A DNA stretch of 64,000 bases from assembly GCA_965140585.1 (NCBI GenBank), contig OZ223272.1:448001-512000 (forward strand), written 5' to 3'. The DNA comes from Spirochaetia bacterium (GTDB taxonomy: Bacteria; Spirochaetota; Spirochaetia; UBA9216). Of the stretch, positions 7,770-39,014 are shown piece by piece. Under the pieces are notes generated by a model. That model did not search any database, was not told where the DNA came from, and was given only the letters and a program-made list of their open reading frames with translations. A program made the translations under genes and the position numbers. Numbering within the stretch: the first letter of the stretch is position 1; each line of letters opens with the position of its first letter.

Positions 7770-8195
7770 TTTTTCCTCCTCTGAAATCATTCAAAAACAG
7801 TTTTATATGATTAAATCGATATTTATTACTGTCAAATAGTATCATAGTAACAATATTTGACATAGTTTTTTATCTAATCACCTCTTTCAATAAATAGTAC
7901 ATTTATATCCCTTCTTCGCCCGTCGGCCGGAGGTCCGGGCGTCTTCTTCTTGTCGGGCTCATTGCACATAACGTCTGCGGTTATATGACGTTTGGCGCAG
8001 CCAAATGTGCCGCAGGCCGAGGCCGAATGGCCGATGCAAATAACCGCTGTTATATAAAGTACTTGGGCTCACTAGTTTCTTCCCCAAAAGACAAGGACGT
8101 ATTTTGGGATCCAATATTAATCTACTTCTTTTCTCTTCAACTCTTACTCTTCAATCTCTTTATTTCAATAATGTTCCTAACTTTATCATAGAATA

Positions 8196-8711
8196 TTAAA
8201 TATTTGTTTTTTTGTTAATATTGTAGATCATTAAAAATTCCTCTTCATTCTCACCTATTATTTGGAACCCTATGTTTTGATACATCTTTAAAGCGTAGTT
8301 ATCTTTTTGTACAGCTAAACTTGCTTTCTTAAAACCTTTATCTCTTAATAATTTCAACATTGAAATCATCAAAGAAGTACCAATTCCATATCCTCTAAAA
8401 TCTTTTAGAATCGATATTGCGAACTCTGGAGTTTTATCATCTATATTCCCAAAGCCTTTGATTTGTTCGGATAATATCCTAACCCAAACACAGCCTATTA
8501 TTTCTTTTTCATATTCTGCTACTAAGCAATAATCTGATTCTTTTCCAAACTCCGCAATATAAACCTGAAGTTCAGGCTTTTTAATTATATCTTTTGGCAG
8601 TCGATCCTTATTATTCTTTTGAAATATTGCCTCGTAGAGAAAATTGTCTAATACATAAATTTCCGATGTTTTAATGTTTCTAATCTTGTAGTTGATTTGA
8701 TTCTTTTTCAT
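8196..8711 (-). CDS. GNAT acetyltransferase (cassette 1)
   Basis: FRGYGIGT, SLAVQKDN, YQNIGF motifs. Confidence 0.88.
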   Translation of the reverse strand: MKKNQINYKIRNIKTSEIYVLDNFLYEAIFQKNNKDRLPKDIIKKPELQVYIAEFGKESDYCLVAEYEKEIIGCVWVRILSEQIKGFGNIDDKTPEFAISILKDFRGYGIGTSLMISMLKLLRDKGFKKASLAVQKDNYALKMYQNIGFQIIGENEEEFLMIYNINKKTNI

Positions 8712-8958
8712 AATTTCTCAATAATTTCTATCATAAAATTTTTCAATCCTTCTCTTACCCTTTTTCTCTTTTTCTTCACGAGCCAGGACGGCGAGTGCTG
8801 AATCCTCTTCGCCCAAGTATTTCATATAACGTCCCGGGGTTAAGCGAAGTTGCGAAGCAATTTGGGCGCAGGCCGAAGGGCCGGAGCCGCTTAACCCCTG
8901 TTATCTGAAGTATTGTGGCTTAAGCCGTAATTACAGGACGTAATTACGGCTTTCTTCT

Positions 8959-9183
8959 CTACGATAACTCTCGAGCTTCTCTAATAACATCAAGAATTTC
9001 TTTGGTTGTAACTTTACTTTTAATTCCTGGAACATCAAATGGCGATTTGCTTTCATTTTTAGTAAGCGGTACAATCTTAAATCTGCTTCCATCCTTCTTT
9101 GCTATTATGACATCTTCTTCTGCTGCCATATTCAATATTGAAGCAAAATTCTGCCTAGCTTCTGAATAATTAAAAACTCTCAT
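8959..9183 (-). CDS. Phd/YefM family antitoxin (cassette 2)
   Basis: YSEARQNFASILN N-terminus. Confidence 0.85.
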   Translation of the reverse strand: MRVFNYSEARQNFASILNMAAEEDVIIAKKDGSRFKIVPLTKNESKSPFDVPGIKSKVTTKEILDVIREARELS

Positions 9184-9576
9184 TCAGACCTCCAATAAGT
9201 GGACTCCTAAATCATTAGCCACTTCTTTCATTCTATTATCCAAACTCAACAAACTGCATTTGTATCGTTTTGCTATTTCCAAATAATACGCATCGTAAGC
9301 ATATATTCCATAATCTGCTGCTATTACTAATGAGTTTTGAATATTAACATCAATCAAACGCACTGGTATTTTCTGAAATATTGAATAACAATCAATTATT
9401 TGACTCTTATCTAATCTATTTCTTTTATACATTACAGATAGAGCGTTTCCCACTTCGAAAGGTAAAACAACCGGTGATATCAGATCATCTTCCTGAGTTA
9501 ATCCAATTATTTTGCTTTTTTCCGGCTCATCGAGAATTACTGCTAAATATATGTTTGCATCTACCAATATACTCAT
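9184..9576 (-). CDS. PIN-domain (VapC) toxin, upstream of its antitoxin (cassette 2)
   Basis: ILVDAN...YAYDAYYL...LLSLD PIN motifs; start moved to ATG at 9576. Confidence 0.88.
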   Translation of the reverse strand: MSILVDANIYLAVILDEPEKSKIIGLTQEDDLISPVVLPFEVGNALSVMYKRNRLDKSQIIDCYSIFQKIPVRLIDVNIQNSLVIAADYGIYAYDAYYLEIAKRYKCSLLSLDNRMKEVANDLGVHLLEV

Positions 9577-9611
9577 GTGTACATTGTACAACACTTTTTA
9601 AATTTTATCAA
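9577..9611 (-). promoter_or_regulatory. Sigma70 promoter with TGTACA operator; probably leaderless transcript
   Basis: TTGATA-17-TACAAT, ATG 6 nt after the -10; two TGTACA palindromes around the -10. Confidence 0.7.
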
Positions 9612-9778
9612 TCTTAATTCTTTCTAACGAGCCAAGGAAGGCGAGTTTCTTCAAACCACAATATTTCGGATAACGTTCTGAGAATAGGCGAAGTTGGCCA
9701 CAGGCCAATTTGGGTGAAGCGAAGCGGAACCGCCTATTCTCTGTTACAGGAAGTTGATTGAGCTACCTTAGTTCAATC

Positions 9779-11135
9779 GATAACGTAAAAAATCTTTCGC
9801 ACATTTAAAAAATAATGGAAAAGGTCCTCAAGAAGGTTTAATATTTTTTCACCACAAAAAATGAACCAAAGAGAGGACCTTTATGGCAACAAATGAGCCA
9901 GGTAAAATTATACAAATAGATGAGCATTTAGTCCAATCACAATTGAAAGAAGTTGTGAGAGACACTGTTGAAGAAACTCTGAATTCTTTGCTCGATGCAG
10001 AAGCTGACAGGCTTTGCGGAGCAGAAAAATACGAGCGAACTGATGCACGTAAAGATACCCGTGCTGGCTATTACAAACGAAACCTTGATACATCTGCCGG
10101 TCGCGTTGAACTCAAAATGCCTAAGCTAAGAAATCTGCCTTTTGAAACAGCAATTGTCGAACGGTATAAGCGCCGAGAGGCTTCGGTTGAAGAGTCTCTG
10201 ATTGAGATGTATCTGGCCGGAGTTTCTGTTCGTCGAGTTGAAGATATTACCGAAGCACTCTGGGGAACCAAGGTTTCATCAGGTACTGTAAGTAATTTAA
10301 ATAAACAGATTTATGAGTAAATAGAAGCTTGGCGGAACAGACCTATCAAGGAGTATTACCTTTATGTTTATCTCGATGGCATAGTATTGAAGCGCTCCTG
10401 GGCTGGAGAAGTTAGAAATGTATCAGTTTTGGTGGCTATAGGGGTCTCAGAGAGCGGTTATCGTGAAATAATTGGTGTTGCCGAGGGAGCAAAAGAGGAT
10501 AAAGCAGGCTGGAGTGACTTCCTGAAGTTCTTGAAATCCCGAAGGCTTAAAGATGTTAAATTGATTATCTCTGATAAGTGTATGGGCCTTGTAGAATCGA
10601 TCTGTGAATACTTCCCCGAATCCAGATGGCAACGCTGTGTAGTGCATTATTACCGCAATGTTTTTTCTGTAGTACCTCGTGGAAAAATGCGAGAAGTTGC
10701 TGCAATGCTTAAAGCAATTCATGCTCAAGAAGATAGAGATGAGGCATTGAAAAAGGCTTCATATGTAGCTAAGAAACTTGAAGATATGAAACTTCACAAA
10801 GCATCGAAAAAGGTATCTGAATGTATCCATGAAACCCTTGAATACATGTTCTTCCCAGAACAGCACTGGCAAAGAATTAAGACGAATAATCCACTGGAAC
10901 GGATCATGCGGGAAATCCGAAGGCGTACCCGAGTAGTTGGTAATTTCCCTGATGGAAATTCTGCTCTTATGCTGGTCTCTGCTCGGCTCCGACATATTGC
11001 CGGAACAAAATGGGGCACAAAAAAATACTTGAACACTGCTCTTTTGAAGGAGTATGATTACATAGAAAAGGAGGTACTTGCATAGCATCTTCTTGAGGAC
11101 CAAATCTGAAAGTGCGAAAGATTTTAAGCGCTACC
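9779..11135 (+). mobile_element. IS256-family insertion sequence
   Basis: Imperfect TIRs (GATAACGTAAAAAATCTTTCGCAC / GGTAGCGCTTAAAATCTTTCGCAC); 8-bp target duplication GTTCAATC at 9771-9778 and 11136-11143. Confidence 0.92.
9883..11085 (+). pseudogene. IS256 transposase with in-frame nonsense codon
   Basis: EMYLAGVSVRRV, YLDG, QRCVVH, TNNPLER motifs; TAA at 10318-10320 with the frame continuing IEAWRNRP. Confidence 0.9.
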
Positions 11136-11541: not shown

Positions 11542-11763
11542 TAAAGTCCTCAATCAATTTCCTATAACGTCCCGGGTTAAGCGAAGCTGAAGTGCTACTA
11601 CAGGAGAGTTTTGCGAATGCGCAAAACCGACTGAACTTGCTCTGCTTCTTCGTAAGCTTCAGTTTGGGTGAGGCCGTATGGCCGAACCGCTTAACCCTTG
11701 TTATCTGCTGTGAACCAGCGTTCCAGACCGTATAACGGAGTTAGGTCTGAAAATTCTTCATTC

Positions 11764-12392: not shown

Positions 12393-12410
12393 ATTATCAC
12401 CTCTATATTA

Positions 12411-12439
12411 AATATATACCTTGATATATACCTTGTCAA
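12411..12439 (-). promoter_or_regulatory. vapBC promoter/operator
   Basis: TTGACA-17-TATATT containing two AGGTATATAT repeats. Confidence 0.7.
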
Positions 12440-12651
12440 ACATTACTTTATCCAAAATCTATTATTTTCTTAATCGCCCGTCGGCCGGAGGTCCGGGCGT
12501 CTTCTCTTCGCTGGTTTATTGCAGATAACGTTCCAGGGTTATACGACGTTCGGCGCAGCCCGTAGGCCGAATGGCCGGAGCGTGTAACCCTTGTTATGCG
12601 CTTTGAGCCTGACATCCAGACCGTTCAACGGAGTTAGGTCTGGATTCTTCT

Positions 12652-13173: not shown

Positions 13174-13504
13174 TATTAATTATCCCTTTCTAAAAAACTT
13201 TGTATTCTTATGTTCTTAAAGTATTAAAAATCAATTTAAACAATCATTTTTGTTAAACACTATAGTATTTTTCATTTTTCCTTCTTTCTCGCCCGTCGGC
13301 CGAAGGTCCGGGCATCTTACTCTTGTTAGGCTCATTGCGTATAACGTTCCGGGGTTATGTGACGTACGGCGCCAAGCCGTATGTGGCGCAGCCCGAGGAG
13401 CGTATAGCGACGAAGCACATAGCCCCTGTTATCTGCTGTATTTTCGCCTCTTCGACCAGGCCGTACGGCGGGGCCAGGCTGGGTTCTTAAAATCCTCTTT
13501 ACTT

Positions 13505-14401: not shown

Positions 14402-14610
14402 AATATGATTACACTTTCTTAATAGCCCGTCGGCCGGAGGTCCGGGTGTCTTCCTCTTTGCGGGGGCATTTCAGCTAACGTTCCAGGGTTACACGACGTT
14501 GGCGCAGCCGAATGTGGCGCAGCCCAGAGGCCGAATGGCCGAAGCGTGTAACCCTTGTTATCTGCTTTGAACCCGTCATCCAGACCGTTCAACGGAGTTA
14601 GGTCTGGATT

Positions 14611-14800
14611 CTTCCTCTCTTCCTCTCTTCCTCTCTTCCTCTCTTCCTCTCTTCCTCTCTTCCTCTCTTCCTCTCTTCCTCTCTTCCTCTCTTCCTCTCT
14701 TCCTCTCTTCCTCTCTTCCTCTCTTCCTCTCTTCCTCTCTTCCTCTCTTCCTCTCTTCCTCTCTTCCTCTCTTCCTCTCTTCCTCTCTTCCTCTCTTCCT
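14611..14800. repeat. Tandem repeat (CTTCCTCT) x ~23.75
   Basis: Direct reading; begins right after the cassette-7 trailer hairpin. Confidence 0.97.
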
Positions 14801-15298: not shown

Positions 15299-15499
15299 AT
15301 TGCTTATTCCTTAGCTATATTTATAAAATTGTAACTATCATTTATTTATAACTCAAAAACCACATACAAAATCTTCGCCCGTCGGCCGGAGGTCCGGGCG
15401 TCCTCTTTCCTGACGGGTTCATTGCTTATAACGTTCTGAGAATGTGCGAAGTCGCCGCAGGCGATTTGGGTGAAGCGAAGCGAAACCGCATATTCGCTG

Positions 15500-16147
15500 T
15501 TATGTGTCGTTTTTTTGGTTTCGGTGAAATTTAAACACATATGCATACGCTTTTTTTGTAAAATTTTCTCCTACCATTTTTTTCTGGACTTCCTCTAAAT
15601 CAATTGGAGTATTGTCGTCTTTTATAAAATACTCATCTAAATCTGTATCAGTAATACTGAACTTGTCTCCATTTCGTTTAATTATAGCAATTAACTCATA
15701 CTCTTCATCCGCATAGGCGAGACTTGCATCACCATGGCTATTATTACAGACTAATATGCCTTGATTTTTTAAGTATTTTTTACAGGATTGTGAAATAAAA
15801 CCGGCATAAAATGAAAATAAAATATCGAATGAATACATATCAATTGGTAATTCACTTGAAAAATCAGCTTGAAATGCTTGAATCGTAGGATCTTCCTCAT
15901 AGCTTTTATTGAGTTTGATAAAATTTAAGACTTTTTCATCTTCAAAGAACTTTGAAATTCTTTTATCCGAATCAATATATGTCATTTCACGAATATAAAA
16001 TGAAGGAGAAATATGTACAAAACTGCCAGGATAAATACCTTTTGTAGGATTGTATAAGTTCTTTATATTTTCAAATAATTTTTTTCGTTCATCTTTTTTG
16101 TCAATAAAGTATTGCTTATATAACTTCGGTATTTCTAATTCTTTCAT
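15500..16147 (-). CDS. Conserved hypothetical protein, possibly SAM-methyltransferase-like (cassette 8)
   Basis: YPGSFVHISPS, YIDSD, FDILFS...LKNQGILV; stop codon lies inside the R box. Confidence 0.65.
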   Translation of the reverse strand: MKELEIPKLYKQYFIDKKDERKKLFENIKNLYNPTKGIYPGSFVHISPSFYIREMTYIDSDKRISKFFEDEKVLNFIKLNKSYEEDPTIQAFQADFSSELPIDMYSFDILFSFYAGFISQSCKKYLKNQGILVCNNSHGDASLAYADEEYELIAIIKRNGDKFSITDTDLDEYFIKDDNTPIDLEEVQKKMVGENFTKKAYAYVFKFHRNQKNDT

Positions 16148-16376
16148 TTAATCTCCAAAAAATGACACATAACGTTCCGGGGTTATATGACGTTTGGCGA
16201 AGCCAAATGTGCCACAGGCCGAGCCCGAACAGGCGAAGCATATAGCCGCTGTTATGTGCTTTGTGCCCAACATCCAGACCGTTCAACGGAGTTAGGTCTG
16301 GATTCCTCATTCTATACAACGGTTTATCTTCACTGAAATCTTGAAATTTTTCAGTTTTCATATTTTTAAATGCCTA

Positions 16377-17780: not shown

Positions 17781-17945
17781 GTAAATAACTCCTTTGTTAA
17801 ATATTTCTCTTCGCCCGTCGGCCGGAGGTCCGGGCGTCTTACTCTTGTTGGGCTCATTGCACATAACGTCCCGGGGTTATACGACGTTCGGCAAAGCCGA
17901 ATGTGGCGCAGCCCGAAGCCCGAATGGGCGGAGCGTATAGCCCCT

Positions 17946-18350
17946 GTTATGCGACGTCGCCTTTATTAGAGAAAGATTCCGATCAATCAAACGATCTAAA
18001 TAATCTCCTCTTACCATTTCTACCCAATATTCTATTCGCCCTTTGCGACTTTCACAATCATTTTTATTTCACCTGCAAGTCAACGAGCAAAGTGAGTGTG
18101 GCAGACTTGCCAAACTGAAAAAACCTGTCATGCCCACGAAGCAGATTTTGATAATTATAAGCCAATACTTTTTCTTTAACGTCAGAACAAACATCGTCCA
18201 ACGCAACGACCTTCTTATAACAACAACCAAATCAAAATCCAAAATCTTCCTCATTCCAGGGCGAATTGAATATTGCAAACTATTTGGTAATCACTTATGG
18301 TTCGGAACTTTCTCCACCCCAAGATCATGCTCCGGCGATGTCCGCATAAC
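17946..18350. repeat. ORF-less cassette family A, copy 1
   Basis: ~405 bp unit GTTATGCGACGTCGCC...GGCGATGTCCGCATAAC between att sites. Confidence 0.9.
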
Positions 18351-18487
18351 GTTCCGGGGTTATGTGACGTACGGCTTAAGCCGTATGTGGCGCAGCCCGA
18401 GGAGCGCATAGCGACGAAGCACATAGCCCCTGTTAGACGATGTCACGAACCTTCTTCAAAGCCAAGCAACACGGATGTTGTTTGGCT

Positions 18488-19101: not shown

Positions 19102-19230
19102 TCTTTGCTTGCCAGGGATGGTAAGCATCCTCTTTCTCTTAGGTTCGTGATTTCGTCTAACGTCCCGGGGTTAAGCGAAGTTGCGCAGCAATTTAGGCGC
19201 AGGCCGAAGGGCCGGAGCCGCTTAACCCCT

Positions 19231-19634
19231 GTTATGCGACGTCGCCTTTATTAGAGAAAGATTCCGATCAATCAAACGATCTAAATAATCTCCTCTTACC
19301 ATTTCTACCAAATATTCTATTCGCCCTTGGCGACTTTCACAATCATTTTTATTTCACCAGCAAGTCAACGAGCAAAGCGAGTGTGGCAGACTTGCCAAAC
19401 GGAAAAACCTGTCATGCCCACGAAGCAGATTTTGATGATTATAAGCCAATACTTTTTCTTTAACGTCAGAACAAACATCGTCCAACGCAACGACCTTCTT
19501 CTAACAACAACCAAATCAAAATCCAAAATCTTCATCATTCCAGGGCGAATTGAATATTGTAAACTATTTGGTAATCACTTTTGGTTCGGAACTTTCTCCA
19601 CCCCAAGATCATGCTTCGGCGATGTCCGCATAAC
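19231..19634. repeat. ORF-less cassette family A, copy 2
   Basis: Near-identical to copy 1; carries a different att variant. Confidence 0.9.
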
Positions 19635-19798
19635 GTCCCGCGGTTATGTGATGTTTTGTGCTCGGCCCTACAGGCCGATTGGCAACTCTTTTGCATACAG
19701 CGCCTTTACCTCACATCTTTCTCCACTTCGCAAAAGTGATGCCAAAACAAAATATGCCGGAGGCCAAGGAGCGTTTAGCGACGCCGCACATAGCCGCT

Positions 19799-20197
19799 GT
19801 TATACGCCGTCACAAAATAAAGAAAGTTGTACATCATCTTCACAACCTAAAATTTTAGTTCACATTTCAAACTTATTTAATATTCTATTCGACCATACTG
19901 TCTTTCACAATCTTTTTTATTTACTCCGCAAAATAACGAGCTTTGCGAGTGGGCCAGTTTTGCATAAACGTTTCTGCATGCCCCAGCCCCGTACAGATTT
20001 TGATTATTCCAAAGCCAAAACTCTTTCATAGAACGTCAGAAAAAAGTCATTGTTTGAAATTTTTCTTCATCAAAACAAAAATCAAAATCTGAAATCAGAT
20101 CTTAGTCGAACAGAATATTGCCAACTTATTATTTCATTATTTAAGCGCAGCAACTTTCTTCCACCCCATATCCTTGCCCAAAGTGATGGAGTATAAC
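19799..20197. repeat. ORF-less cassette family B, copy 1
   Basis: ~398 bp unit GTTATACGCCGTCAC...GTGATGGAGTATAAC with ~178 bp att. Confidence 0.9.
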
Positions 20198-20375
20198 GTC
20201 CCGGGGTTATGTGACGTACGGCGATAGCCGTATGTGGCGCAGCCCGAGGAGCGCATAGCGACGACGCACATAGCCCCTGTTATAAGCAGTAAGCCAGGCA
20301 TCCAGACCGTCCAACGGAGTTAGGTCTGGATTCTCTCATGTCTTTGTTTTATTAACCTTACTTTCTAAGGTTAAA

Positions 20376-21326: not shown

Positions 21327-21489
21327 TTAATCTCCTTTTTGAAATTCAGTCTTATCGCCCGTCGGCCGGAGGCCCGGGCGTCTTCCTCTTGCCTGGCTTA
21401 TTGCTTATAACGTCCCGGGGTTATACGACGTTCGGCAAAGCCGAATGTGGCGCAGCCCGAAGCCCGAATGGGCGGAGCGTATAGCCCCT

Positions 21490-21894
21490 GTTATGCGACG
21501 TCGCCTTTATTAGAGAAAGATTCCGATCAATCAAACGATCTAAATAATCTCCTCTTACCATTTCTACCCAATATTCTATTCGCCCTTTGCGACTTTCACA
21601 ATCATTTTTATTTCACCTGCAAGTCAACGAGCAAAGCGAGTGTGGCAGACTTGCCAAACGGAAAAAACCTGTCATGCCCACGAAGCAGATTTTGATAATT
21701 ATAAGCCAATACTTTTTCTTTAACGTCAGAACAAACATCGTCCAACGCAACGACCTTCTTCTAACAACAACCAAATCTAAATCCAAAATCTTCCTCATTC
21801 CAGGGCGAATTGAATATTTCAAACTATTTGGTAATCACTTATGGTTCGGAACTTTCTCCACCCCAAGATCATGCTCCGGCGATGTCCGCATAAC
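21490..21894. repeat. ORF-less cassette family A, copy 3
   Basis: Sequence similarity to copy 1. Confidence 0.9.
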
Positions 21895-21972
21895 GTCCCG
21901 GGGTTATACGACGTTCGGCAAAGCCGAATGTGGCGCAGCCCGAAGCCCGAATGGGCGGAGCGTATAGCCCCT

Positions 21973-22377
21973 GTTATGCGACGTCGCCTTTATTAGAGAA
22001 AGATTCCGATCAATCAAACGATATAAATAATCTCCTCTTACCATTTCTACCCAATATTCTATTCGCCCTTTGCGACTTTCACAATCATTTTTATTTCACC
22101 TGCAAGTCAACGAGCAAAGCGAGTGTGGCAGACTTGCCAAACGGAAAAAACCTGTCATGCCCACGAAGCAGATTTTGATAATTATAAGCCAATACTTTTT
22201 CTTTAACGTCAGAACAAACATCGTCCAACGCAACGACCTTCTTCTAACAACAACCAAATCAAAATCCAAAATCTTCCTCATTCCAGGGCGAATTGAATAT
22301 TGCAAACTATTTGGTAATCACTTATGGTTCGGAACTTTCTCCACCCCAAGATCATGCTCCGGCGATGTCCGCATAAC
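21973..22377. repeat. ORF-less cassette family A, copy 4
   Basis: Tandem with copy 3. Confidence 0.9.
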
Positions 22378-22523
22378 GTCCCGCGGTTATATGACGTTCG
22401 GCGTAGCCGAATGTGCCGCAGGCCGAGCCCGAATGGGCGAAGCAAATAACCGCTGTTATATGCTTTGGGCTCAACATCCAGACCGTTCAACGGAGTTAGG
22501 TCTGGATTCTTCTTTCTTTAAAA

Positions 22524-23772: not shown

Positions 23773-23850
23773 GTCCCGGGGTTATACGACGTTCGGCAAA
23801 GCCGAATGTGGCGCAGCCCGAAGCCCGAATGGGCGGAGCGTATAGCCCCT

Positions 23851-24255
23851 GTTATGCGACGTCGCCTTTATTAGAGAAAGATTTCGATCAATCAAACGAT
23901 CTAAATAATCTCCTCTTACCATTTCTACCCAATATTCTATTCGCCCTTTGCGACTTTCACAATCATTTTTATCTCACCTGCAAGTCAACGAGCAAAGCGA
24001 GTGTGGCAGACTTGCCAAACGGAAAAAACCTGTCATGCCCACGAAGCAGATTTTGATAATTATAAGCCAATACTTTTTCTTTAACGTCAGAACAAACATA
24101 GTCCAACGCAACGACCTTCTTCTAACAACAACCAAATCTAAATCCAAAATCTTCCTCATTCCAGGGCGAATTGAATATTGCAAACTATTTGGTAATCACT
24201 TATGGTTCGGAACTTTCTCCACCCCAAGATCATGCTCCGGCGATGTCCGCATAAC
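23851..24255. repeat. ORF-less cassette family A, copy 5
   Basis: Similar to A1. Confidence 0.9.
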
Positions 24256-24454
24256 GTCCCGGGGTTATGTGACGTATGGCGAAAGCCGTATGTGGCGGAG
24301 CCCGAGGAGCGTATAGCGACGAAGCACATAGCCCCTGTTATCTGCAGTGTTTCCGCCTCTTCGGCCAGACCGTTCGGCGGAGCCAGGACTGGCCTCTTTC
24401 CTAATCTATTCTCCTCTTCTCAGCTTTTCAAATTCATAAACACTTTTGAATTAA

Positions 24455-24931: not shown

Positions 24932-25214
24932 AATTTTTCTTCCTCTATAATTTTTATAAATTTGTATTTAATATATCACCTTTAATTAAAGATGCTTGAA
25001 ATTTCTATATTTTCTTCGCCCGTCGGCCGGAGGTCCGGGCGTCTTCCTCTTGGCGGAAACATTGCAGATAACGTCCCGGGGTTATGTGACGTTCGGCAAA
25101 GCCGAATGTGGCGGAGCCCGAGGAGCGTATAGCGACGAAGCACATAGCCCCTGTTATCTGCTTTGTTTCCGCCTCTTCGACCAGACCGTACGGTGGAGCC
25201 AGGGCTAGTCTCTT

Positions 25215-26090: not shown

Positions 26091-26280
26091 TTATATACTC
26101 ACCTCTTTTCCATATTCTATGTACCAATAATTTAAATTACACTTTCTAATAGCCCGTCGGCCGGAGGTCCGGGCGTCTTTCTCTTGGCGGAAACATTGCA
26201 GATAACGTCCCGGGCATATGCGAAGTTGGCCGCAGGCCAATTTGGGCGAAGGGGCTTGACCCCGTAGCCGCATGTGCCCT

Positions 26281-26685
26281 GTTATGCGACGTCGCCTTTA
26301 TTAGAGAAAGATTCCGATCAATCAAACGATCTAAATAATCTCCTCTTACCATTTCTACCCAATATTCTATTCGCCCTTTGCGACTTTCACAATCATTTTT
26401 ATTTCACCTGCAAGTCAACGAGCAAAGCGAGTGTGGCAGACTTGCCAAACGGAAAAAACCTGTCATGCCCACGAAGCAGATTTTGATAATTATAAGCCAA
26501 TACTTTTTCTTTAACGTCAGAACAAACATCGTCCAACGCAACGACCTTCTTCTAACAACAACCAAATCAAAATCCAAAATCTTCCTCATTCCAGGGCGAA
26601 TTGAATATTGCAAACTATTTGGTAATCACTTATGGTTCGGAACTTTCTCCACCCCAAGATCATGCTCCGGCGATGTCCGCATAAC
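26281..26685. repeat. ORF-less cassette family A, copy 6
   Basis: Similar to A1; third att variant. Confidence 0.9.
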
Positions 26686-26848
26686 GTCCCGGGGTTATGT
26701 GACGTACGGCGAAGCCGTATGTGGCGCAGCCCGAGGAGCGCATAGCGACGATGCACATAGCCCCTGTTATCTGAAGTGCCCCCGCTCTTCAACCCAACCG
26801 CACGGCGGAGTCAAGGTTGGGTTTCTTTGAACATCTTCAACATTTCTT

Positions 26849-27376: not shown

Positions 27377-27740
27377 TCTCAGATTTTACCATTTTTTTTG
27401 AAATAATCTAAAACTCTTTTTCGCCCGTCGGCCGGAGGTCCGGGCGATTTCTCCCAAGGGGGCATTTCAGATAACGGCCCCAGCATAACCGAAGTTGAAG
27501 TGCAACCAAAGGAGTGTTTTGCCCAAAGAGCAAAACCGACTGTCCCTGCTCTCCTTCTCCGCAAGCTTCAATTTGGGTGGAGGCCGAATGGCCGGAACCG
27601 GTTATGGTGTGTTATGTGCTTTGAGCCCGACATCCAGACCGTTCAACGGAGTTAGGTCTGGATTCTTCATTTATCCAGCTTAAAATTACATTTAATGAAA
27701 TTAAAAACATCAAATAATTTTCTTATAAACTGTATCTTTT

Positions 27741-28622: not shown

Positions 28623-28879
28623 TTCATTAACCCCTTCCTTTATTTATAATCTTTTCTCTTCGCCCGTCGGCCGGAGGTCCGGGCGTCTTCTTCTTGTCGG
28701 GCTCATTGCACATAACGTTCCGGGGTTATACGACGTTCGGCGCAGCCGAATGTGGCGCAGCCCGGAGCCCGAATGGGCGGAGCGTATAGCCCCTGTTATG
28801 TTCAGTAAAAAGGCAGGCCTCCAACTTTAAAGGAGAACTTGTACACGGATGTACAAGTTCTCTCTTTTCATCTTCAAAT

Positions 28880-29566: not shown

Positions 29567-29803
29567 TTTCTCATTATACCTTTTTTGGGCCAGGACGGCC
29601 CAAAAACACCCTCCGAAGCCGCCTTTTTATTGAACATAACGTCCGCGGTTATGTGATGTTTTGTGGTCGGCCCTACAGGCCGATTGGCAACTCTTTTGCA
29701 TTCAGCGCCTTTACCCTCTATCTTTCTCCATTTCGCAAAAGTGGTGACAAAACAAAATATGCCGCAGGCCAAGGAGCGTCTAGCGACGCCGCACATAGCC
29801 GCT

Positions 29804-30202
29804 GTTATACGCCGTCACAAAATAAAGAAAGTTGTACATCATCTTCACAATCTAAACATTTCTTTCACATTTCAAACTTCTTTAATATTCTATTCGACCA
29901 TACTGACTTTCACAATCTTTTTTATTTACTCCGCAAAATAACGAGCTTTGCGAGTGGGCCAGTTTTGCATAAACGTTTCTGTATGCCCCAGCCCCGTACA
30001 GATTTTGATAATTCCAAAGCCAAAACTCTTTCATAGAACGTCAGAAAAAAGTCATTGTTTGAAATTTTTCTTCATCAAAACAAAAATCAAAATCTGAAAT
30101 CAGATCTTAGTCGAACAGAATATTGCCAACTTATTATTTCATTATTTAAGCGCAGCAACTTTCTTCCACCCCATATCCTTGCCCAAAGTGATGGAGTATA
30201 AC
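29804..30202. repeat. ORF-less cassette family B, copy 3
   Basis: Similar to B1. Confidence 0.9.
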
Positions 30203-30271
30203 GTCCCGGGGTTAAGCGAAGTTGCGCAGCAATTTAGGCGTAGGCCGAATGGCCGGAGCCGCTTAACCCCT

Positions 30272-30674
30272 GTTATGCGACGTCGCTTTTTATTAGAGAA
30301 AGATTCCGATCAATCAAGTGATCTAAAAGAATCTCCACTTCTTATTTCTACCCAATATTCTATTCGCCCTTTGCGACTTTCTCAATCATTTTTATTTTAT
30401 CTGCAAGTCAACGAGCATAGCGAGTGAAGCAGACTTGCTGAACGGAACAACCTGCTGCGCCCGCGAAGCAGATTTTGATAATTATAAGCCAATACTTTTT
30501 CTTTAACGTCAGAACAAACATCGTCCAACGCAACGACCTTCTTCTAACAACCAAATCAAAATCCAAAATCTTCCTCATTCCAGGGCGAATTGAATATTGT
30601 AAACTATTTGGTAATCACTTGTGGTTCGGAACTTTCTCCACCCCAAGATCATGCTCCTGCGATGTCCGCATAAC
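30272..30674. repeat. ORF-less cassette family A, copy 7 (most divergent)
   Basis: Clustered substitutions in the left half. Confidence 0.88.
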
Positions 30675-31062
30675 GTCCCGGGGTTATATGACGTTTTTAT
30701 TTTTCTTAATTTTACCACCAATTACCCGTATTTACCAATTATAAACTATTGCTTCATGTCTGTGCATTTAACGACGATTTGAGTAGCAAAATCGGCCGAG
30801 TCTTCGAGGCATGGCGCAGTTCTGGAACGTAGCGCGATCAGCGCGAAGTGTCTTTAGCCAGAACTGTGACAAAGATTTTGACTACTCCAAATCTCTTGTT
30901 AAATGCTTACACCCAACTTACCCAAATCATAAAATAAAAATGTGGCGCAGCCCGAGGAGCTTATAGCGACGAGCAAATAACCCCTGTTATAGGCAGTAAG
31001 CGCCTCTTTGATTACATGTAGTGAGGCACGGATGCCGAACGGTAATCTTGCTATCTTTTCTG

Positions 31063-32271: not shown

Positions 32272-32494
32272 TTTATATATCCTTCATTCTTAAATGTTTG
32301 AGCCATGGACGGCTCAAACTCTTATTCTTAATTACTCTTGGCGCTTATTGACTATAACGTTCCAGGGTTATACGACGTTCGGCAAAGCCGAATGTGGCGC
32401 AGCCCGGAGGCCGTATGGCCGGAGCGAATAACCCTTGTTATAGGCAGTAAGCGCCTCTTTGATTACATGTAGTGAGGCACGGATGCCGAACGGA

Positions 32495-32702
32495 AATCTT
32501 TCTTCTTAATCTTTCTTCTTAATCTTTCTTCTTAATCTTTCTTCTTAATCTTTCTTCTTAATCTTTCTTCTTAATCTTTCTTCTTAATCTTTCTTCTTAA
32601 TCTTTCTTCTTAATCTTTCTTCTTAATCTTTCTTCTTAATCTTTCTTCTTAATCTTTCTTCTTAATCTTTCTTCTTAATCTTTCTTCTTAATCTTTCTTC
32701 TT
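32495..32702. repeat. 13-mer tandem repeat (AATCTTTCTTCTT) x16
   Basis: 208 bp counted directly. Confidence 0.96.
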
Positions 32703-33191
32703 AACAACATCTTCATAAATCATTGAAACAGCATCTGGAATGGATAAGTTTGAATTAATTCTGCTCTCAGAAATAATTCCAATCAAATCTTCTTCTCTCC
32801 ACCACTTCCTCATATCCTCTTCTCCAAAATCAGAACTATTTGATTTCGATTTATGTCGTCGTATTGTCTCTTCAAAAGATAAATCATAATAATAAGCAAA
32901 TATTTCAGAGTCAAATTCTTCTATTGCTTTTTTAAATAATCTAAGATAATAATCTGAGTATAAAATACCTTCTAAAATTACAAATTCTGAATTTCTCTTT
33001 CCATATTTAATTAATTCCTCTAAAAGTGGGATTGCCTTATTTTCAATTCTATCATGAACCCATAACATCTCTCTTCTTATATAATCCTGAGAAATCATCA
33101 TAGTATTTCGACCCAATTTTCTTTGTAATGATTTTGCTAAGGAAGTTTTTCCACTTCCTGAATTACCTCTAATAATTATTAGCTTTGACAT
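32688..33191 (-). CDS. P-loop (AAA_33-like) kinase, copy 1 (cassette 29)
   Basis: IIIRGNSGSGKT Walker A, VILEG. Confidence 0.85.
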   Translation of the reverse strand: MSKLIIIRGNSGSGKTSLAKSLQRKLGRNTMMISQDYIRREMLWVHDRIENKAIPLLEELIKYGKRNSEFVILEGILYSDYYLRLFKKAIEEFDSEIFAYYYDLSFEETIRRHKSKSNSSDFGEEDMRKWWREEDLIGIISESRINSNLSIPDAVSMIYEDVVKKKD

Positions 33192-33379
33192 CTACTTTTT
33201 ATTTCCCTCTTAGAATCCGCCACGGAAGGCGGATTTCTTTCTTCTCGAAAAATCTTGGCGCTTATTGCCTATAACGTTCCAGGGTTATACGACGTTCGGC
33301 AAAGCCGAATGTGGCGCAGCCCGGAGGTCGTATGGCCGGAGCGAATAACCCTTGTTATAGGCAGTAAGCGCCTCTTTGA

Positions 33380-33913
33380 TTACATGTAGTGAGGCACGGA
33401 TGCCGAACGGAAATCTTTCTTCTTAACAACGTCTTCATAAATCATTGAAACAGCATCTGGAATGGATAAGTCTGAATTAATTCTGCTCTCAGAAATAATT
33501 CCAATCAAATCTTCTTCTCTCCACCACTTCCTCATATCCTCTTCTCCAAAATCAGAACTATTTGATTTCGATTTATGTCGTCGTATTGTCTCTTCAAAAG
33601 ATAAATCATAATAATAAGCAAATATTTCAGAGTCAAATTCTTCTATTGCTTTTTTAAATAATCTAAGATAATAATCTGAGTATAAAATACCTTCTAAAAT
33701 TACAAATTCTGAATTTCTCTTTCCATATTTAATTAATTCCTCTAAAAGTGGGATTGCCTTATTTTCAATTCTATCATGAACCCATAACATCTCTCTTCTT
33801 ATATAATCCTGAGAAATCATCATAGTATTTCGACCCAATTTTCTTTGTAATGATTTTGCTAAGGAAGTTTTTCCACTTCCTGAATTACCTCTAATAATTA
33901 TTAGCTTTGACAT
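33380..33913 (-). CDS. P-loop kinase, copy 2, with 10-aa C-terminal extension (cassette 30)
   Basis: Single 13-mer unit, so no TAA is formed; ends FRSASVPHYM. Confidence 0.85.
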   Translation of the reverse strand: MSKLIIIRGNSGSGKTSLAKSLQRKLGRNTMMISQDYIRREMLWVHDRIENKAIPLLEELIKYGKRNSEFVILEGILYSDYYLRLFKKAIEEFDSEIFAYYYDLSFEETIRRHKSKSNSSDFGEEDMRKWWREEDLIGIISESRINSDLSIPDAVSMIYEDVVKKKDFRSASVPHYM

Positions 33914-34133
33914 CTACTTTTTATTTCCCTCTTAGAATCCGCCACGGAAGGCGGATTTCTTTCTTCTCGAAAAATCTTGGCGCTTATTGCCTATAACGTT
34001 CCAGGGTTATACGACGTTCGGCAAAGCCGAATGTGGCGCAGCCCGGAGGCCGTATGGCCGGAGCGAATAACCCTTGTTATAGGCAGTAAGCGCCTCTTTG
34101 ATTACATGTAGTGAGGCACGGATGCCGAACGGA

Positions 34134-34276
34134 AATCTTTCTTCTTAATCTTTCTTCTTAATCTTTCTTCTTAATCTTTCTTCTTAATCTTTCTTCTTAA
34201 TCTTTCTTCTTAATCTTTCTTCTTAATCTTTCTTCTTAATCTTTCTTCTTAATCTTTCTTCTTAATCTTTCTTCTT
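34134..34276. repeat. 13-mer tandem repeat (AATCTTTCTTCTT) x11
   Basis: 143 bp counted directly. Confidence 0.96.
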
Positions 34277-34765
34277 AACAACATCTTCATAAATCATTGA
34301 AACAGCATCTGGAATGGATAAGTTTGAATTAATTCTGCTCTCAGAAATAATTCCAATCAAATCTTCTTCTCTCCACCACTTCCTCATATCCTCTTCTCCA
34401 AAATCAGAACTATTTGATTTCGATTTATGTCGTCGTATTGTCTCTTCAAAAGATAAATCATAATAATAAGCAAATATTTCAGAGTCAAATTCTTCTATTG
34501 CTTTTTTAAATAATCTAAGATAATAATCTGAGTATAAAATACCTTCTAAAATTACAAATTCTGAATTTCTCTTTCCATATTTAATTAATTCCTCTAAAAG
34601 TGGGATTGCCTTATTTTCAATTCTATCATGAACCCATAACATCTCTCTTCTTATATAATCCTGAGAAATCATCATAGTATTTCGACCCAATTTTCTTTGT
34701 AATGATTTTGCTAAGGAAGTTTTTCCACTTCCTGAATTACCTCTAATAATTATTAGCTTTGACAT
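34262..34765 (-). CDS. P-loop kinase, copy 3 (cassette 31)
   Basis: Protein identical to copy 1. Confidence 0.85.
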   Translation of the reverse strand: MSKLIIIRGNSGSGKTSLAKSLQRKLGRNTMMISQDYIRREMLWVHDRIENKAIPLLEELIKYGKRNSEFVILEGILYSDYYLRLFKKAIEEFDSEIFAYYYDLSFEETIRRHKSKSNSSDFGEEDMRKWWREEDLIGIISESRINSNLSIPDAVSMIYEDVVKKKD

Positions 34766-34927
34766 CTACTTTTTATTTCCCTCTTAGAATCCGCCACGGA
34801 AGGCGGATTTCTTTCTTCTCGAAAAATCTTGGCGCTTATTGCCTATAACGTCCCGGGGTTATACGACGTTCGGCAAAGCCGAATGTGGCGCAGCCCGAAG
34901 CCCGAATGGGCGGAGCGTATAGCCCCT

Positions 34928-35328
34928 GTTATGCGACGTCGCCTTTATTAGAGAAAGATTCCGACCAATCAAACGATCTAAATAATCTCCTCTTACCATT
35001 TCTACCCAATATTCTATTCGCCCTTTGCGACTTTCACAATCATTTTTATTTTACCTGCAAGTCAACGAGCAAAGCGAGTGTGGCAGACTTGCCAAACGGA
35101 AAAACCTGTCATGCCCACGAAGCAGATTTTGATAATTATAAGCCAATACTTTTTCTTTAACGTCAGAACAAACATCGTCCAGCGCAACGACCTTCTTTTA
35201 ACAACCAAATCAAAATCCAAAATCTTCCTCATTCCAGGGCGAATTGAATATTGTAAACTATTTGGTAATCACTTGTGGTTCGGAACTTTCTCCACCCCAA
35301 GATCATGCTCCTGCGATGTCCGCATAAC
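34928..35328. repeat. ORF-less cassette family A, copy 8
   Basis: Similar to A1 with small indels. Confidence 0.9.
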
Positions 35329-35406
35329 GTCCCGGGGTTATACGACGTTCGGCAAAGCCGAATGTGGCGCAGCCCGAAGCCCGAATGGGCGGAGCGTATA
35401 GCCCCT

Positions 35407-35809
35407 GTTATGCGACGTCGCCTTTATTAGAGAAAGATTCCGATCAATCAAACGATCTAAATAATCTCCTCTTACCATTTCTACCCAATATTCTATTCGC
35501 CCTTTGCGACTTTCACAATCATTTTTTTTCACCTGCAAGTTAACGAGCAAAGCGAGTGTGGCAGACTTGCCAAACGGAAAAACCTGTCATGCCCACGAAG
35601 CAGATTTTGATAATTATAAGCCAATACTTTTTCTTTAACGTCAGAACAAACATCGTCCAACGCAACAACCTTCTTCTAACAACAACCAAATCAAAATCCA
35701 AAATCTTCCTCATTCCAGGGCGAATTAAATATTGCAAACTATTTGGTAATCACTTATGGTTCGGAACTTTCTCCACCCCAAGATCATGCTCCGGCGATGT
35801 CCGCATAAC
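35407..35809. repeat. ORF-less cassette family A, copy 9
   Basis: Similar to A1 with small indels. Confidence 0.9.
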
Positions 35810-35974
35810 GTCCGCGGTTATGTGATGTTTTGTGGTCGGGCCCTACAGGCCGATTGGCAACTCTTTTGCATTCAGCGCCTTTACCCTCTATCTTGCTACT
35901 ACTTCGCAAAAGTGGTGACAAAGCAAAATATGCCGCAGGCCAAGGAGCGTTTAGCGACGCCGCACATAGCCGCT

Positions 35975-36372
35975 GTTATACGCCGTCACAGAATAAAGAA
36001 AGTTGTACATCATCTTCATAATCTAAACATTTATTTCACATTTCAAACTTCTTTAATATTCTATTCGACCATACTGACTTTCACAATCTTTTTTATTTAC
36101 TCCGCAAAATAACGAGCTTTGCGAGTGGGCCAGTTTTGCATAAACGTTTCTGCATGCCCCAGCCCCGTACAGATTTTGATTATTCCAAAGCCAAAACTCT
36201 TTCATAGAACGTCAGAAAAAAGTCATTGTTTGAAATTTTTCTTCATCAAAATAGAAATCAAAATCTGAAATCATATCTTAGTCGAAGAGAATATTGCCAA
36301 CTTATTATTTCATTATTAAGCGCAGCAACTTTCTTCCACCCAATATCCTTGCCCAAAGTGATGGAGTATAAC
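35975..36372. repeat. ORF-less cassette family B, copy 4
   Basis: Similar to B1. Confidence 0.9.
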
Positions 36373-36622
36373 GTCCGTGGTTAAGCGAAGCTGATGCGCA
36401 ACTAAAGGAGTGTTTTGCGAATGCGCAAAACCGACTGACCCTGCTCTACTTCTCCGTAAGCTTCAGTTTGGGTGAAAGCGCCATGGCGCTTTCACCGCTT
36501 AACCATTGTTATGTGCTTTGAGCCCGACATCCAGACCGTTCAACGGAGTTAGGTCTGGATTCTTCTTTTCTTTTCCCAGGATTCTGAAAATAATCAATAC
36601 TGCTGTAAACACGTATTATGTT

Positions 36623-37201
36623 TTATAATCCTATTACTCTATTCCAATCTGCAATATACATATAAATTCTTTGAAATTCTGATGGTAGTAGCATTCTATT
36701 ATGTGCTATAAAATTTCTTGTTTTTTCAAGTTCATCCATTCTTTGTTTTAACCAATGTTGCGATGGTATCAAGGTTTCAAAAAAATGCCAAAACTCAATC
36801 ATAATTTGAGACAGCATTCCAAAATCTATAAAACCAAGAAGATCAGATTTTTCACCTTCTAACCAACTATCTTTTAAAGCGGATTCCTGACGTCTTTGAG
36901 CATGATCTTTTATTCTATTTGGAATCGAATCCCACCAATTTACCCCGATATTTTCCTGTAATGTTTCTCGAATTAGATCTCTTATTTCATTTTCAAAACA
37001 AAATATTAAACTATATAAACGAGACATTTCTAGTGCTTTATTTCTCCTATTAATCGAGAAAGGAGAGATAACCTCATTTGTTAAATCTATCTCAGTTCTC
37101 GAATCAGAAGCCCCTATTTGTATTCCTGCTTTTTGAAATTTATTTGCTTCAGATTCAAACATTAACCCTCGAAAAAGATAATCTCTTAAATCTTTAGTCA
37201 A
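36623..37201 (-). CDS. Swt1-like HEPN domain protein (cassette 35)
   Basis: FENEIRDLI..L....G.NWW, RNFIAH (RxxxxH). Confidence 0.8.
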   Translation of the reverse strand: MTKDLRDYLFRGLMFESEANKFQKAGIQIGASDSRTEIDLTNEVISPFSINRRNKALEMSRLYSLIFCFENEIRDLIRETLQENIGVNWWDSIPNRIKDHAQRRQESALKDSWLEGEKSDLLGFIDFGMLSQIMIEFWHFFETLIPSQHWLKQRMDELEKTRNFIAHNRMLLPSEFQRIYMYIADWNRVIGL

Positions 37202-37814
37202 TTAAATGCTCCTTAACACTTTTAAATATTGCGTTATAAACTTCTATATCTTTTGTTGCTGGTAAATGTATCTGAATATTATAATGTAATGAAGTTTGAC
37301 TGATCTTCCTTTCAATTGACTCAATTTTTTCTGGCTCGATTTCTTCTTTCTCATTATCATTATCTTCTACTATTTTTGTCTCTTCAACTACATCAGAATT
37401 TATATCTGCAAATTCTAATAGTGAATAAAATGTTTTCATCATCAATTCTGCATTGCGTTCTGAAGTATTATGAGTACTTTTAAACTTACCTTTTATTAAT
37501 TCTTTATCTTTATCTTCAGGATATCTGCTAATAGTAAAAATATCCGAATATGCCTCTTTAATTGCTTTGCCCAAGATTTTTCGTGATAAAGCTTCATTTC
37601 TAAATTCTTTATATTCATCAGTTGGTGATCCATCCTCTGTTAAAAACCCTAAAGCTTTTAATAATGGAATAAATGCTCTATGATTAGTCGAAGTAAATCC
37701 TATATCTTTCAAATGCTGATTAGTAAATTTCCCAGGAGCTTGTCCTTGTTTTATTTTATTAAAAAAATCTCCTAATTGACCATAAACTTGCAGCGGAATA
37801 TTTGCCAAACTCAT
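37194..37814 (-). CDS. DUF5343 domain protein (cassette 35)
   Basis: APGKFT..HLKDIGF, LKALGFLTEDGSPT, YNIQIHLPAT. Confidence 0.8.
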   Translation of the reverse strand: MSLANIPLQVYGQLGDFFNKIKQGQAPGKFTNQHLKDIGFTSTNHRAFIPLLKALGFLTEDGSPTDEYKEFRNEALSRKILGKAIKEAYSDIFTISRYPEDKDKELIKGKFKSTHNTSERNAELMMKTFYSLLEFADINSDVVEETKIVEDNDNEKEEIEPEKIESIERKISQTSLHYNIQIHLPATKDIEVYNAIFKSVKEHLID

Positions 37815-38132
37815 ATTCTCTCCCTTTATTTAAATTATTTCATATATATAACATTATAACGCTAAAATAATAATTTGGATCCTTAAAAATCACAACTTAA
37901 ACATTCTCTCTTCGCCCGTCGGCCGGAGGTCCGGGCGTCTTCCTCTTGTCGGGCTCATTGCACATAACGTCCCGCGGTTATGTGATGTTTTGTGCTCGGC
38001 CCTACAGGCCGATTGGCAACTCTTTTGCATTCAGCGCCTTTACCCTCTATCTTTCTCCATTTCGCAAAAGTGGTGACAAAACAAAATATGCCGCAGGCCA
38101 AGGAGCGTCTAGCGACGCCGCACATAGCCGCT

Positions 38133-38531
38133 GTTATACGCCGTCACAAAATAAAGAAAGTTGTACATCATCTTCACAATCTAAACATTTCTTTCACATT
38201 TCAAACTTCTTTAATATTCTATTCGACCATACTGACTTTCACAATCTTTTTTATTTACTTCGCAAAATAACGAGCTTTGCGAGTGGGCCAGTTTTGCATA
38301 AACGTTTCTGCATGCCCCAGCCCCGTACAGATTTTGATTATTCCAAAGCCAAAACTCTTTCATAGAACGTCAGAAAAAAGTCGTTGTTTGAAATTTTTCT
38401 TCATCAAAACAAAAATCAAAATCTGAAATCAGATCTTAGTCGAACAGAATATTGCAAACTTATTATTTCATTATTTAAGCGCAGCAACTTTCTTCCACCC
38501 CATATCCTTGCCAAAAGTGATGGAGTATAAC
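38133..38531. repeat. ORF-less cassette family B, copy 5
   Basis: Most similar to B3. Confidence 0.9.
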
Positions 38532-38609
38532 GTCCCGGGGTTATACGACGTTCGGCAAAGCCGAATGTGGCGCAGCCCGAAGCCCGAATGGGCGGAGCGT
38601 ATAGCCCCT

Positions 38610-39014
38610 GTTATGCGACGTCGCCTTTATTAGAGAAAGATTCCGATCAATCAAACGATCTAAATAATCTCCTCTTACCATTTCTACCCAATATTCTATT
38701 CGCCCTTTGCGACTTTCACAATCATTTTTATTTCACCTGCAAGTCAACGAGCAAAGTGAGTGTGGCAGACTTGCCAAACTGAAAAAACCTGTCATGCCCA
38801 CGAAGCAGATTTTGATAATTATAAGCCAATACTTTTTCTTTAACGTCAGAACAAACATCGTCCAACGCAACGACCTTCTTATAACAACAACCAAATCAAA
38901 ATCCAAAATCTTCCTCATTCCAGGGCGAATTGAATATTGCAAACTATTTGGTAATCACTTATGGTTCGGAACTTTCTCCACCCCAAGATCATGCTCCGGC
39001 GATGTCCGCATAAC
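38610..39014. repeat. ORF-less cassette family A, copy 10 (first cassette of the array)
   Basis: Shares diagnostic variants with A1. Confidence 0.9.

Follow-up and report, generated by a model that had tools for sequence, protein, structure and literature searches.

Can gene cassettes be recombined as folded single strands beside a tyrosine recombinase that lacks I2, the additional domain of the integron integrases (IntI), and how would the strand then be chosen? This question is raised by a stretch of 64,000 nucleotides (nt) from a Spirochaetia bacterium (assembly GCA_965140585.1, contig OZ223272.1, positions 448,001 to 512,000), the whole of which we call the window. Between positions 7968 and 38614 of this stretch, 37 imperfect palindromic repeats follow one another in one orientation on the + strand. 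Next to them lies, on the - strand at 39080-40153, the gene of an I2-less tyrosine recombinase of 357 amino acids (aa), transcribed toward a putative attI site (39010-39079, - strand) and the repeats. The explanation that we put forward, and hold to be probable, is that the 37 repeats are the attC-equivalent cassette sites of an integron-like platform whose integrase is this adjacent recombinase, a relative of Xer and IntI. The locus gathers the components by which an integron is recognised as a system, namely a tyrosine recombinase, an attI and site-bounded cassettes in one orientation.

The motif ATAAC-N6-9-GTTA occurs 61 times on the two strands of the window, against an expectation of 1.74 and a maximum of 6 obtained by shuffling, and within the whole 4.85-Mb genome the site type is confined to this array (36 sites by a regular-expression scan and one long composite site); the window sites were chosen by the left-arm motif only. 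The long open reading frames (ORFs, at least 100 aa) that stand between the sites amount to 4976 aa on the - strand against 1297 aa on the + strand. The cassette products are of the sort usually carried as cassette cargo and comprise GNAT acetyltransferases, PIN/Phd, PIN/MazE and PemK/MazE pairs, β-lactamase-fold and metallo-β-lactamase-fold proteins, and HNH and HEPN proteins.

Read on the + strand, a site consists of xTAAC-G, a one-sided pyrimidine bulge, an L stem, a branched centre, the partner of the L stem, T and GTTAx. The spacers count 5 (or 4) nt on one arm against 1 nt on the other; the G pairs with the T, and 3-4 nt bulge out on one arm. The bulge measures 4 nt in 29 of the 37 sites and 3 nt in five, TCCC being found 20 times and TTCC eight times, and the same register is kept with one mismatch near the base of the stem in three sites (15428, 16169 and 27471). 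The L stem is uninterrupted over 11 pairs in 27 sites and over 10 in one, and runs for 8 pairs up to a mismatch in six; no single extrahelical base was found inside the L stem of the 37 window sites, where the deviations are mismatches. Of 76 distinct arm sets, 74 have G as the first base past TAAC and all 76 have T as the last base ahead of GTTA, the bulges being almost all pyrimidine. The conservation of both bases points to a G.T pair, which would be a C.A mismatch on the other strand. A pairing of the bulge with the purine joiner before L'' was considered and rejected, by reasoning only, since an 11-bp helix holds one of them at each of its ends.

Applied to 53 distinct short sites (21 of the window and 32 of its relatives), RNAalifold recovered the R stem, the 4-nt bulge and the 11-bp L stem. 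Paired cells make up 98.5% of this alignment, a figure inflated for the relatives by the way in which their sites were picked (see below), against 83.0% after shuffling (none of 500 shuffles reaching the observed value) and 36-49% when the partner is slid, and the changes affecting both sides of a pair number 136 cells against 38.4 in the shuffles. The ends xTAAC/GTTAx are invariant in 53 of 53 aligned sites, as are the AAC...GTT of R'' and R' by which attC sites are defined. L'' and L' are conserved in pairing and not in sequence, with both-sided changes at 8 of the 11 L-stem pairs and 97.8% of the cells paired. On this comparative ground, the pairing of the L stem appears to be under selection. 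Folding of all 37 sites on both strands with DNA parameters, the check proposed beforehand, gave the + strand the more stable fold at every one of them (mean -22.9 against -19.4 kcal/mol); the + strand of the window is the non-coding "bottom" strand of the cassettes, and it is this strand that bears the favoured fold.

The centre of 35 of the 37 sites is composed of 2-4 hairpins in the minimum free energy DNA folds, and 27 of the 104 hairpin loops are C-GNA-G. Within the centres, CGNAG is present 93 times on the + strand against 7 times on the - strand, whereas the shuffles average 16.8 and never exceed 29. When closed by C-G, GNA triloops form DNA minihairpins of unusual stability. Distant relatives of the system have plain long hairpins in place of this branched centre, and chromosomal attC sites with branched terminal structures have been described before (Nivina 2016, PMC5027507; this paper and the others cited by a PMC number are drawn on in part of their text). 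We read the branched centre as a lineage feature that helps the bottom strand to fold, and not as the core of the mechanism.

A previous sequence-only reading of the window had announced a site geometry departing from that of canonical attC, devoid of any single extrahelical base in the L box and crowned by 2-4 short hairpins with GNA loops. The folds of the 37 sites agree with it on these points: the bulge is one-sided, and neither the canonical two-sided spacer nor the extrahelical bases are present. The continuous stem with a one-sided bulge that it described was likewise recovered, but the "GTCCC bulge" is better reduced to TYYY, the G being paired with the T before GTTA. Its formula TAAC-(7-8)-GTTA suits 33 of the 37 sites and fails for four (9670, 15428, 26202 and 27471), whose L stem is without GTTA.

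What, then, is the recombinase? Pfam recognises a catalytic and a SAM-like domain in it. With the TIGR02249 model it scores 192.8 bits, in two stretches, for a cut-off of 265, against 377.9 for the genome's own IntI. In the comparison with VchIntIA (2a3v), its residues 255-277 span residues 178-241 of the chain, about 40 residues being missing, and the alignment with the genome's own IntI opens gaps of 31 and 8 residues at I2. Its K-box and HxLRH stand 60 aa apart; across 102 sequences this distance is 56-67 aa in 68 and exactly 100 aa in 28, which bear I2, and was not measurable in 6. The AlphaFold model (mean predicted local distance difference test score, pLDDT, 83.5), searched as a whole with Foldseek, has 2a3v and then XerA structures as its best matches. 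In a tree of 99 rows (quick search, three rows longer than 480 aa omitted, root provided by the genome's own XerC and XerD only), all the I2-bearing rows, IntI1 included, form one clade (SH-like approximate likelihood ratio test, SH-aLRT, 99) that leaves the window protein outside, and the I2-less rows are spread over five or more clades outside it, the backbone being unresolved. The XerC and XerD of this genome are encoded by separate genes on contig C4. Residues 1-81 of the window integrase (39910-40153, - strand) reach by themselves the Pfam HARP cut-off (25.6 against 25 bits), with a β-β-α-β-β-α succession. HARP domains occur in annealing helicases, enzymes that bind branched DNA. By a crude motif search, a HARP-like N-terminal domain is also present in 5 of 27 I2-bearing spirochaete IntIs.

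The limits of the cassettes were deduced from a repeated 483-bp cassette and from the nearest public record, a Spirochaetia metagenome-assembled genome whose integrase is 96% identical, called here the congener. In the 483-bp cassette, present in about ten copies, the cassette's own site is always on the low-coordinate side and the neighbouring site on the other side varies. The integrase-adjacent copy ends, as the internal copies do, with CGATGTCCGC immediately followed by ATAAC, and is succeeded by non-site sequence. This junction being the same next to the integrase, a cassette read on the - strand would consist of a body and of its downstream site. Homology with the congener begins at 39012, at the attI junction, and runs through the integrase at 94%; leftward, the first cassette differs, and two cassettes that are adjacent in the congener are 9.5 kb apart in the window. 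Downstream of the integrase stop codon the two sequences share 66 nt, down to ...CTGAGTT, and then diverge. The limit of homology and the divergence after GAGTT place attI at 39010-39079, that is, over the 66-70 bp from the stop codon to the first cassette junction (...CTGAG followed by TTAT on the - strand). The crossover is accordingly predicted between G and TT of the coding strand (between TAA and C on the + strand), next to the following cassette, as in integrons. Assembled metagenome contigs from two other studies pile up on the sites and run into unlike sequence at the site edges, a pile-up that cannot show excision, whose joints had short sides and whose uncovered parts carry no meaning. 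Taken from these comparisons, the sites appear to bound mobile cassette units. In the repeated cassette of about 480 bp no convincing ORF was recognised (only 69-aa TTG frames); its copies lie at 17863-18346, 19157-19630, 21407-22373, 23768-24251, 26202-26681, 30198-30670, 34845-35805 and 38527-39010, and include two tandem pairs and the position adjacent to attI.

On which arm does the bulge stand? Canonical attC sites have an unpaired central spacer of 5-6 nt on each arm and extrahelical bases near L'', these being 2-3 single bases of the R''-L'' arm, across from the bottom-strand AAC (Nivina 2016, PMC5027507). The sites of the window read as the reverse: judged from the sequence, their additional bases belong, 2 nt after the scissile AAC, to the ORF-distal L'-R' arm. 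This is the bottom strand's 5' arm, on which the cleaved AAC also stands. On the cleaved arm, the scissile AAC is separated from the L stem by C, G and TYYY, about 6 nt in all, matching canonical attC, and the opposite arm has 1 nt where canonical attC has its 5-6 nt spacer and extrahelical bases; the whole asymmetry thus amounts to one bulge on the cleaved arm.

Positive controls show the canonical polarity. The class 1 aadA5 attC, GCCTAAC-TCGGC-GTT[C]AAGCGG[A]CGGGC...GCCCGCCGCTCAAC-TATGC-GTTAGAT, has both extra bases on the ORF-proximal arm. The same genome holds a second, classical and divergent integron with an I2-bearing IntI of 419 aa (C6:916646-937800; loci L006 and L010), and the extrahelical bases of its attC sites are on the canonical arm, but are C and A on the bottom strand and not the usual G and T. 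Among eight further spirochaete arrays beside I2-bearing IntIs, read like that of C6 on arms truncated at 13 pairs, the seven with a clear ORF polarity are canonical and one (L088) is ambiguous, which brings the ORF-proximal extra bases to eight arrays of clear polarity, that of C6 included, besides the aadA5 attC. Three arrays that are co-oriented with their I2-bearing IntI (L082, L085 and L092) have a single extrahelical base on the ORF-proximal side, a G on the bottom strand in L082; being co-oriented and yet canonical, they indicate that gene orientation does not explain the inverted bulge. The sequence-only reading was thus right about an odd geometry and about an integrase without I2, which the TIGR02249 score, the 2a3v comparison and the gaps against the genome's own IntI bear out, but incomplete about the arm, ORF polarity and the positive controls setting the bulge opposite to the canonical extrahelical bases.

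Site 28 of the window (30670-30990, 321 nt) is a composite one. At about 30761-30906 its centre contains a complete canonical attC that shares 91-95% identity, over 139-149 nt, with six sites of the C6 integron (L010); the bottom strand of this nested attC is on the + strand, as is that of the host site, and the congener has three homologous composite sites. Such a composite site could bridge the two cassette systems.

Does this geometry accompany the I2-less enzyme elsewhere? The window protein has a match at E<=1e-50 in 45 of 401 Spirochaetia genomes, an IntI above the cut-off is present in 127 of the 401, and many genomes have both. Beside I2-less relatives of 34-57% identity, the same bulge geometry recurs in nine further genomes and on several metagenome contigs. 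In these nine genomes, the longer spacer (mostly 5 against 1) falls on the same arm in all 55 sites found downstream of the I2-less gene; in L046, a short locus of 4.4 kb, no sites were found. The ORFs are on the integrase strand in 10 of 10 arrays, and the I2-less gene lies directly upstream of such arrays at 10 of the 11 genome loci examined. Among 80 metagenome loci, obtained by a full-length family alignment that also brings in recombinases without the N-terminal domain, five (L099, L100, L103, L107 and L113) carry these sites downstream of the gene. In a short I2-less subfamily of about 275 aa, without the N-terminal domain (L117, L118 and L120), the layout is divergent and bulged sites of the same kind lie upstream; in L120 every ORF diverges from the integrase and the site geometry relative to the ORFs is unchanged. 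Full-length homologues, 40-57% identical, are also found in records named from Firmicutes. As far as these sequences go, the type of site appears to follow the type of enzyme.

The mechanism that we propose combines these features. The folded bottom strand would be the substrate of recombination. The bulge next to the scissile position would bend the hairpin in such a way that only the subunit at the R box cuts, thereby marking at once the strand and the box, and would do the job of the extrahelical bases that are read by the I2 helix in classical integrons. The conserved C-G/T-G step would be the short homology that is swapped; only one strand would be exchanged, and replication would resolve the junction. 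In classical integrons I2 accommodates the extrahelical bases, and these bases block the attack at the L box (Escudero 2016, PMC4792948). A system without I2 and without extrahelical bases needs another asymmetry, for which the bulge is the obvious candidate, and we reasonably infer that the bulge sets the strand choice.

Several observations weigh against this explanation. The support for recombination comes from sequence comparison. The sites of the relatives were picked by their pairing in this very register (10 or more of 11 pairs, or all 9 of 9), so that their pairing figures are inflated. The branched GNA centre, missing in distant relatives, is dispensable for the system. In one metagenome locus, L128, the asymmetry comes to only 2 nt, and its polarity with respect to the ORFs is apparently opposite. 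Lastly, the recombinase passes the XerA-type NCBIfam model NF040815 (229 for a cut-off of 220, which the genome's own XerC passes too), making a classical double-strand exchange possible, and 33 of the 37 sites also contain a duplex-type inverted repeat, TAAC-N7-8-GTTA.

These last two points lead to the best surviving alternative, in which the sites would be recombined as double-stranded Xer-type sites with a TAAC-N8-GTTA core and two strand exchanges, their hairpin potential being incidental or having another role. The enzyme is without I2, its best sequence matches are archaeal XerA structures, and recombination of single-stranded DNA is known only with I2, at least in the part of the review drawn on (Escudero 2020, PMC7790495). 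The L half of such a core is, however, unconserved in four window sites and in many relatives (e.g. GCGAATATGCG and GCGAGTACCCG), whereas the pairing between it and the far arm is preserved, 8 of 11 positions showing compensatory changes. The G.T pairs and the GNA loops are strand-specific and have relevance for single strands only, and the spacers differ among sites (TCCC, TTCC, TCT), which would hinder an exchange requiring a shared overlap. We consider this alternative unlikely.

It is more improbable still that the window holds an ordinary integron array served in trans by the IntI of C6, the adjacent I2-less gene being an unrelated Xer-like recombinase. The genome does encode an I2-bearing IntI (378 bits with TIGR02249), and the attC nested in one window site is 91-95% identical to those of the C6 integron; but the latter has its own array, of a different and canonical geometry, and the synteny with the congener breaks 66-70 bp past the stop codon of the I2-less gene, the very gene found directly upstream of such arrays at 10 of 11 genome loci and on several metagenome contigs. 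Furthermore, the genomes G175 and G189 (92% and 99% complete) possess the I2-less gene and the system, and have no IntI match at E<=1e-60. That the repeats would be no recombination sites at all, but transcription terminators, repetitive extragenic palindromic (REP)-like elements or RNA structures at gene ends, is hardly credible: they do follow each ORF as GC-rich hairpins, yet at 37 of 37 sites it is the non-transcribed strand that bears the stable fold, no T-run follows on the coding strand, the cassette order differs between the congeners with breakpoints at the sites and attI, and an Rfam scan of the whole window returned no family at the gathering threshold.

The integron-like array that we thus retain is composed as follows, all sites being on the + strand. 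A TCCC bulge is found in site 2 (8826-8904, 79 nt), site 4 (11564-11704, 141 nt, long centre), site 10 (17863-17950, 88 nt, the type example), site 12 (19157-19235, 79 nt, CTAAC start), site 13 (19630-19803, 174 nt, long centre), site 14 (20193-20283, 91 nt), site 15 (21407-21494, 88 nt), site 16 (21890-21977, 88 nt), site 17 (22373-22459, 87 nt), site 19 (23768-23855, 88 nt), site 20 (24251-24341, 91 nt), site 21 (25068-25157, 90 nt), site 22 (26202-26285, 84 nt, L stem GGGCATATGCG, no GTTA), site 23 (26681-26770, 90 nt), site 27 (30198-30276, 79 nt), site 32 (34845-34932, 88 nt), site 33 (35324-35411, 88 nt), site 36 (37964-38137, 174 nt, long centre) and site 37 (38527-38614, 88 nt), which belongs to the cassette adjoining attI. 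The bulge is TTCC in site 5 (12525-12597, 73 nt), site 6 (13341-13432, 92 nt), site 7 (14475-14561, 87 nt, CTAAC start), site 9 (16169-16255, 87 nt, one mismatch near the L-stem base), site 11 (18346-18436, 91 nt, GTTAG end), site 25 (28712-28799, 88 nt), site 29 (32354-32441, 88 nt), site 30 (33271-33358, 88 nt) and site 31 (33993-34080, 88 nt). TCC is present, always with a long centre, in site 18 (23207-23380, 174 nt), site 26 (29636-29808, 173 nt), site 34 (35805-35979, 175 nt) and site 35 (36368-36512, 145 nt), and TCT in site 1 (7968-8053, 86 nt). TTCT characterises site 3 (9670-9747, 78 nt, L stem GAGAATAGGCG, no GTTA) and site 8 (15428-15503, 76 nt, one mismatch near the L-stem base, no GTTA), and GCCC site 24 (27471-27615, 145 nt, L stem CAGCATAACCG with one mismatch, no GTTA).

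Other elements are interspersed in the array. Between sites 3 and 4 it is interrupted by a Mutator/IS256-family transposase (9883-11085, + strand, two ORFs of 145 and 232 aa), on the strand opposite to that of the cassettes. A cassette encoding a 167-aa P-loop kinase-like protein, with weak Zeta-toxin/AAA_33 matches, is present in three copies within 32354-34845; 13-nt tandem repeats are located at about 32495-32872 and 34134-34446, and a further tandem repeat at 14610-14800. Eleven cassettes that differ in their ORFs bear at the 5' end, 24-27 nt from the crossover, a conserved palindromic hairpin of 25 nt, CGCCCG...CGGGCG, at 7917-7941, 12475-12499, 13290-13314, 15376-15400, 17812-17836, 21356-21380, 23156-23180, 25017-25041, 27422-27446, 28661-28685 and 37913-37937. 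Nearly every copy of it in the genome is within the array, and it is present too in the first cassette of the congener; a role as a hairpin of a leader RNA, or else as an accessory site, is conceivable.

How does this system compare with those already described? Like canonical integrons (aadA5, the Vibrio VCR, VchIntIA 2a3v), it has promoterless cassette arrays, each cassette ending in an imperfect palindrome, and an attI beside a tyrosine recombinase. Like canonical attC, its sites have AAC/GTT R boxes, an L box conserved in pairing only, a variable and often branched centre, a bottom strand that folds better and a crossover between G and TT. They differ from it by the absence of the two-sided unpaired spacer of 5-6 nt and of single extrahelical bases, the asymmetry being one 3-4 nt pyrimidine bulge on the L'-R' arm and not on R''-L'', and the integrase differs from IntI in lacking I2 and in standing outside the I2-bearing clade. 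The Treponema-type chromosomal integrons, in which intI points toward attI (Wu et al. 2013, PMC3607928), are likewise spirochaetal with an integrase co-oriented with the cassettes, but such co-oriented arrays beside I2-bearing IntIs (L082, L085 and L092) have the canonical geometry, unlike the window. Xer/dif and the single-stranded hairpins of CTX phages that use XerC (Escudero 2020, PMC7790495) offer another parallel, in which a Xer-like fold devoid of I2 may work on a single strand that is folded; the window differs from Xer/dif by its 37 structured sites bounding cassettes and its attI, in place of one dif-like site, in a genome with separate XerC and XerD genes.

The literature helps to situate such an enzyme. 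Integron surveys select their integrases by the additional domain I2 (Nemergut 2008; Ghaly 2021; Cury 2016, PMC4889954), and in one of them only 50 of 18,808 non-IntI recombinases proved to lie near an attC hit and were judged not to be IntI (Cury 2016, PMC4889954). I2 and the recombination of single-stranded DNA are presented as exclusive to IntI, intermediates lacking (Escudero 2020, PMC7790495; Escudero 2016, PMC4792948, each in the part drawn on). An "integron-like" subgroup of tyrosine recombinases has an insertion that is not fully conserved (Smyshlyaev et al. 2021, PMC8138268), and for its insert-less members the same part of that paper describes no sites, arrays or site geometry. Our literature search, made in the texts of articles, found no account of such I2-less arrays or of this site geometry.

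In conclusion, the window displays a large, varied and seemingly active cassette array beside an I2-less enzyme, in which the hairpin logic of the integron is kept and the strand is marked differently. Could I2-less recombinases with bulged-hairpin cassette sites be a widespread sister, or even an ancestral, form of the integron? We advance this idea tentatively, as one that has somewhat less than an even chance of being right. If it is true, the recombination of cassettes through single-strand hairpins would be independent of I2 and may predate it, the cleaved-arm bulge would represent another, and perhaps older, means of choosing the strand, and the composite sites in which a canonical attC is nested would allow cassettes to move from one platform to the other within a genome. 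If the enzyme does recombine folded single strands, the origin of integrons would become testable with natural proteins, cassette reservoirs overlooked by the current tools would become visible, and a second structure-specific recombination system would be available for engineering.

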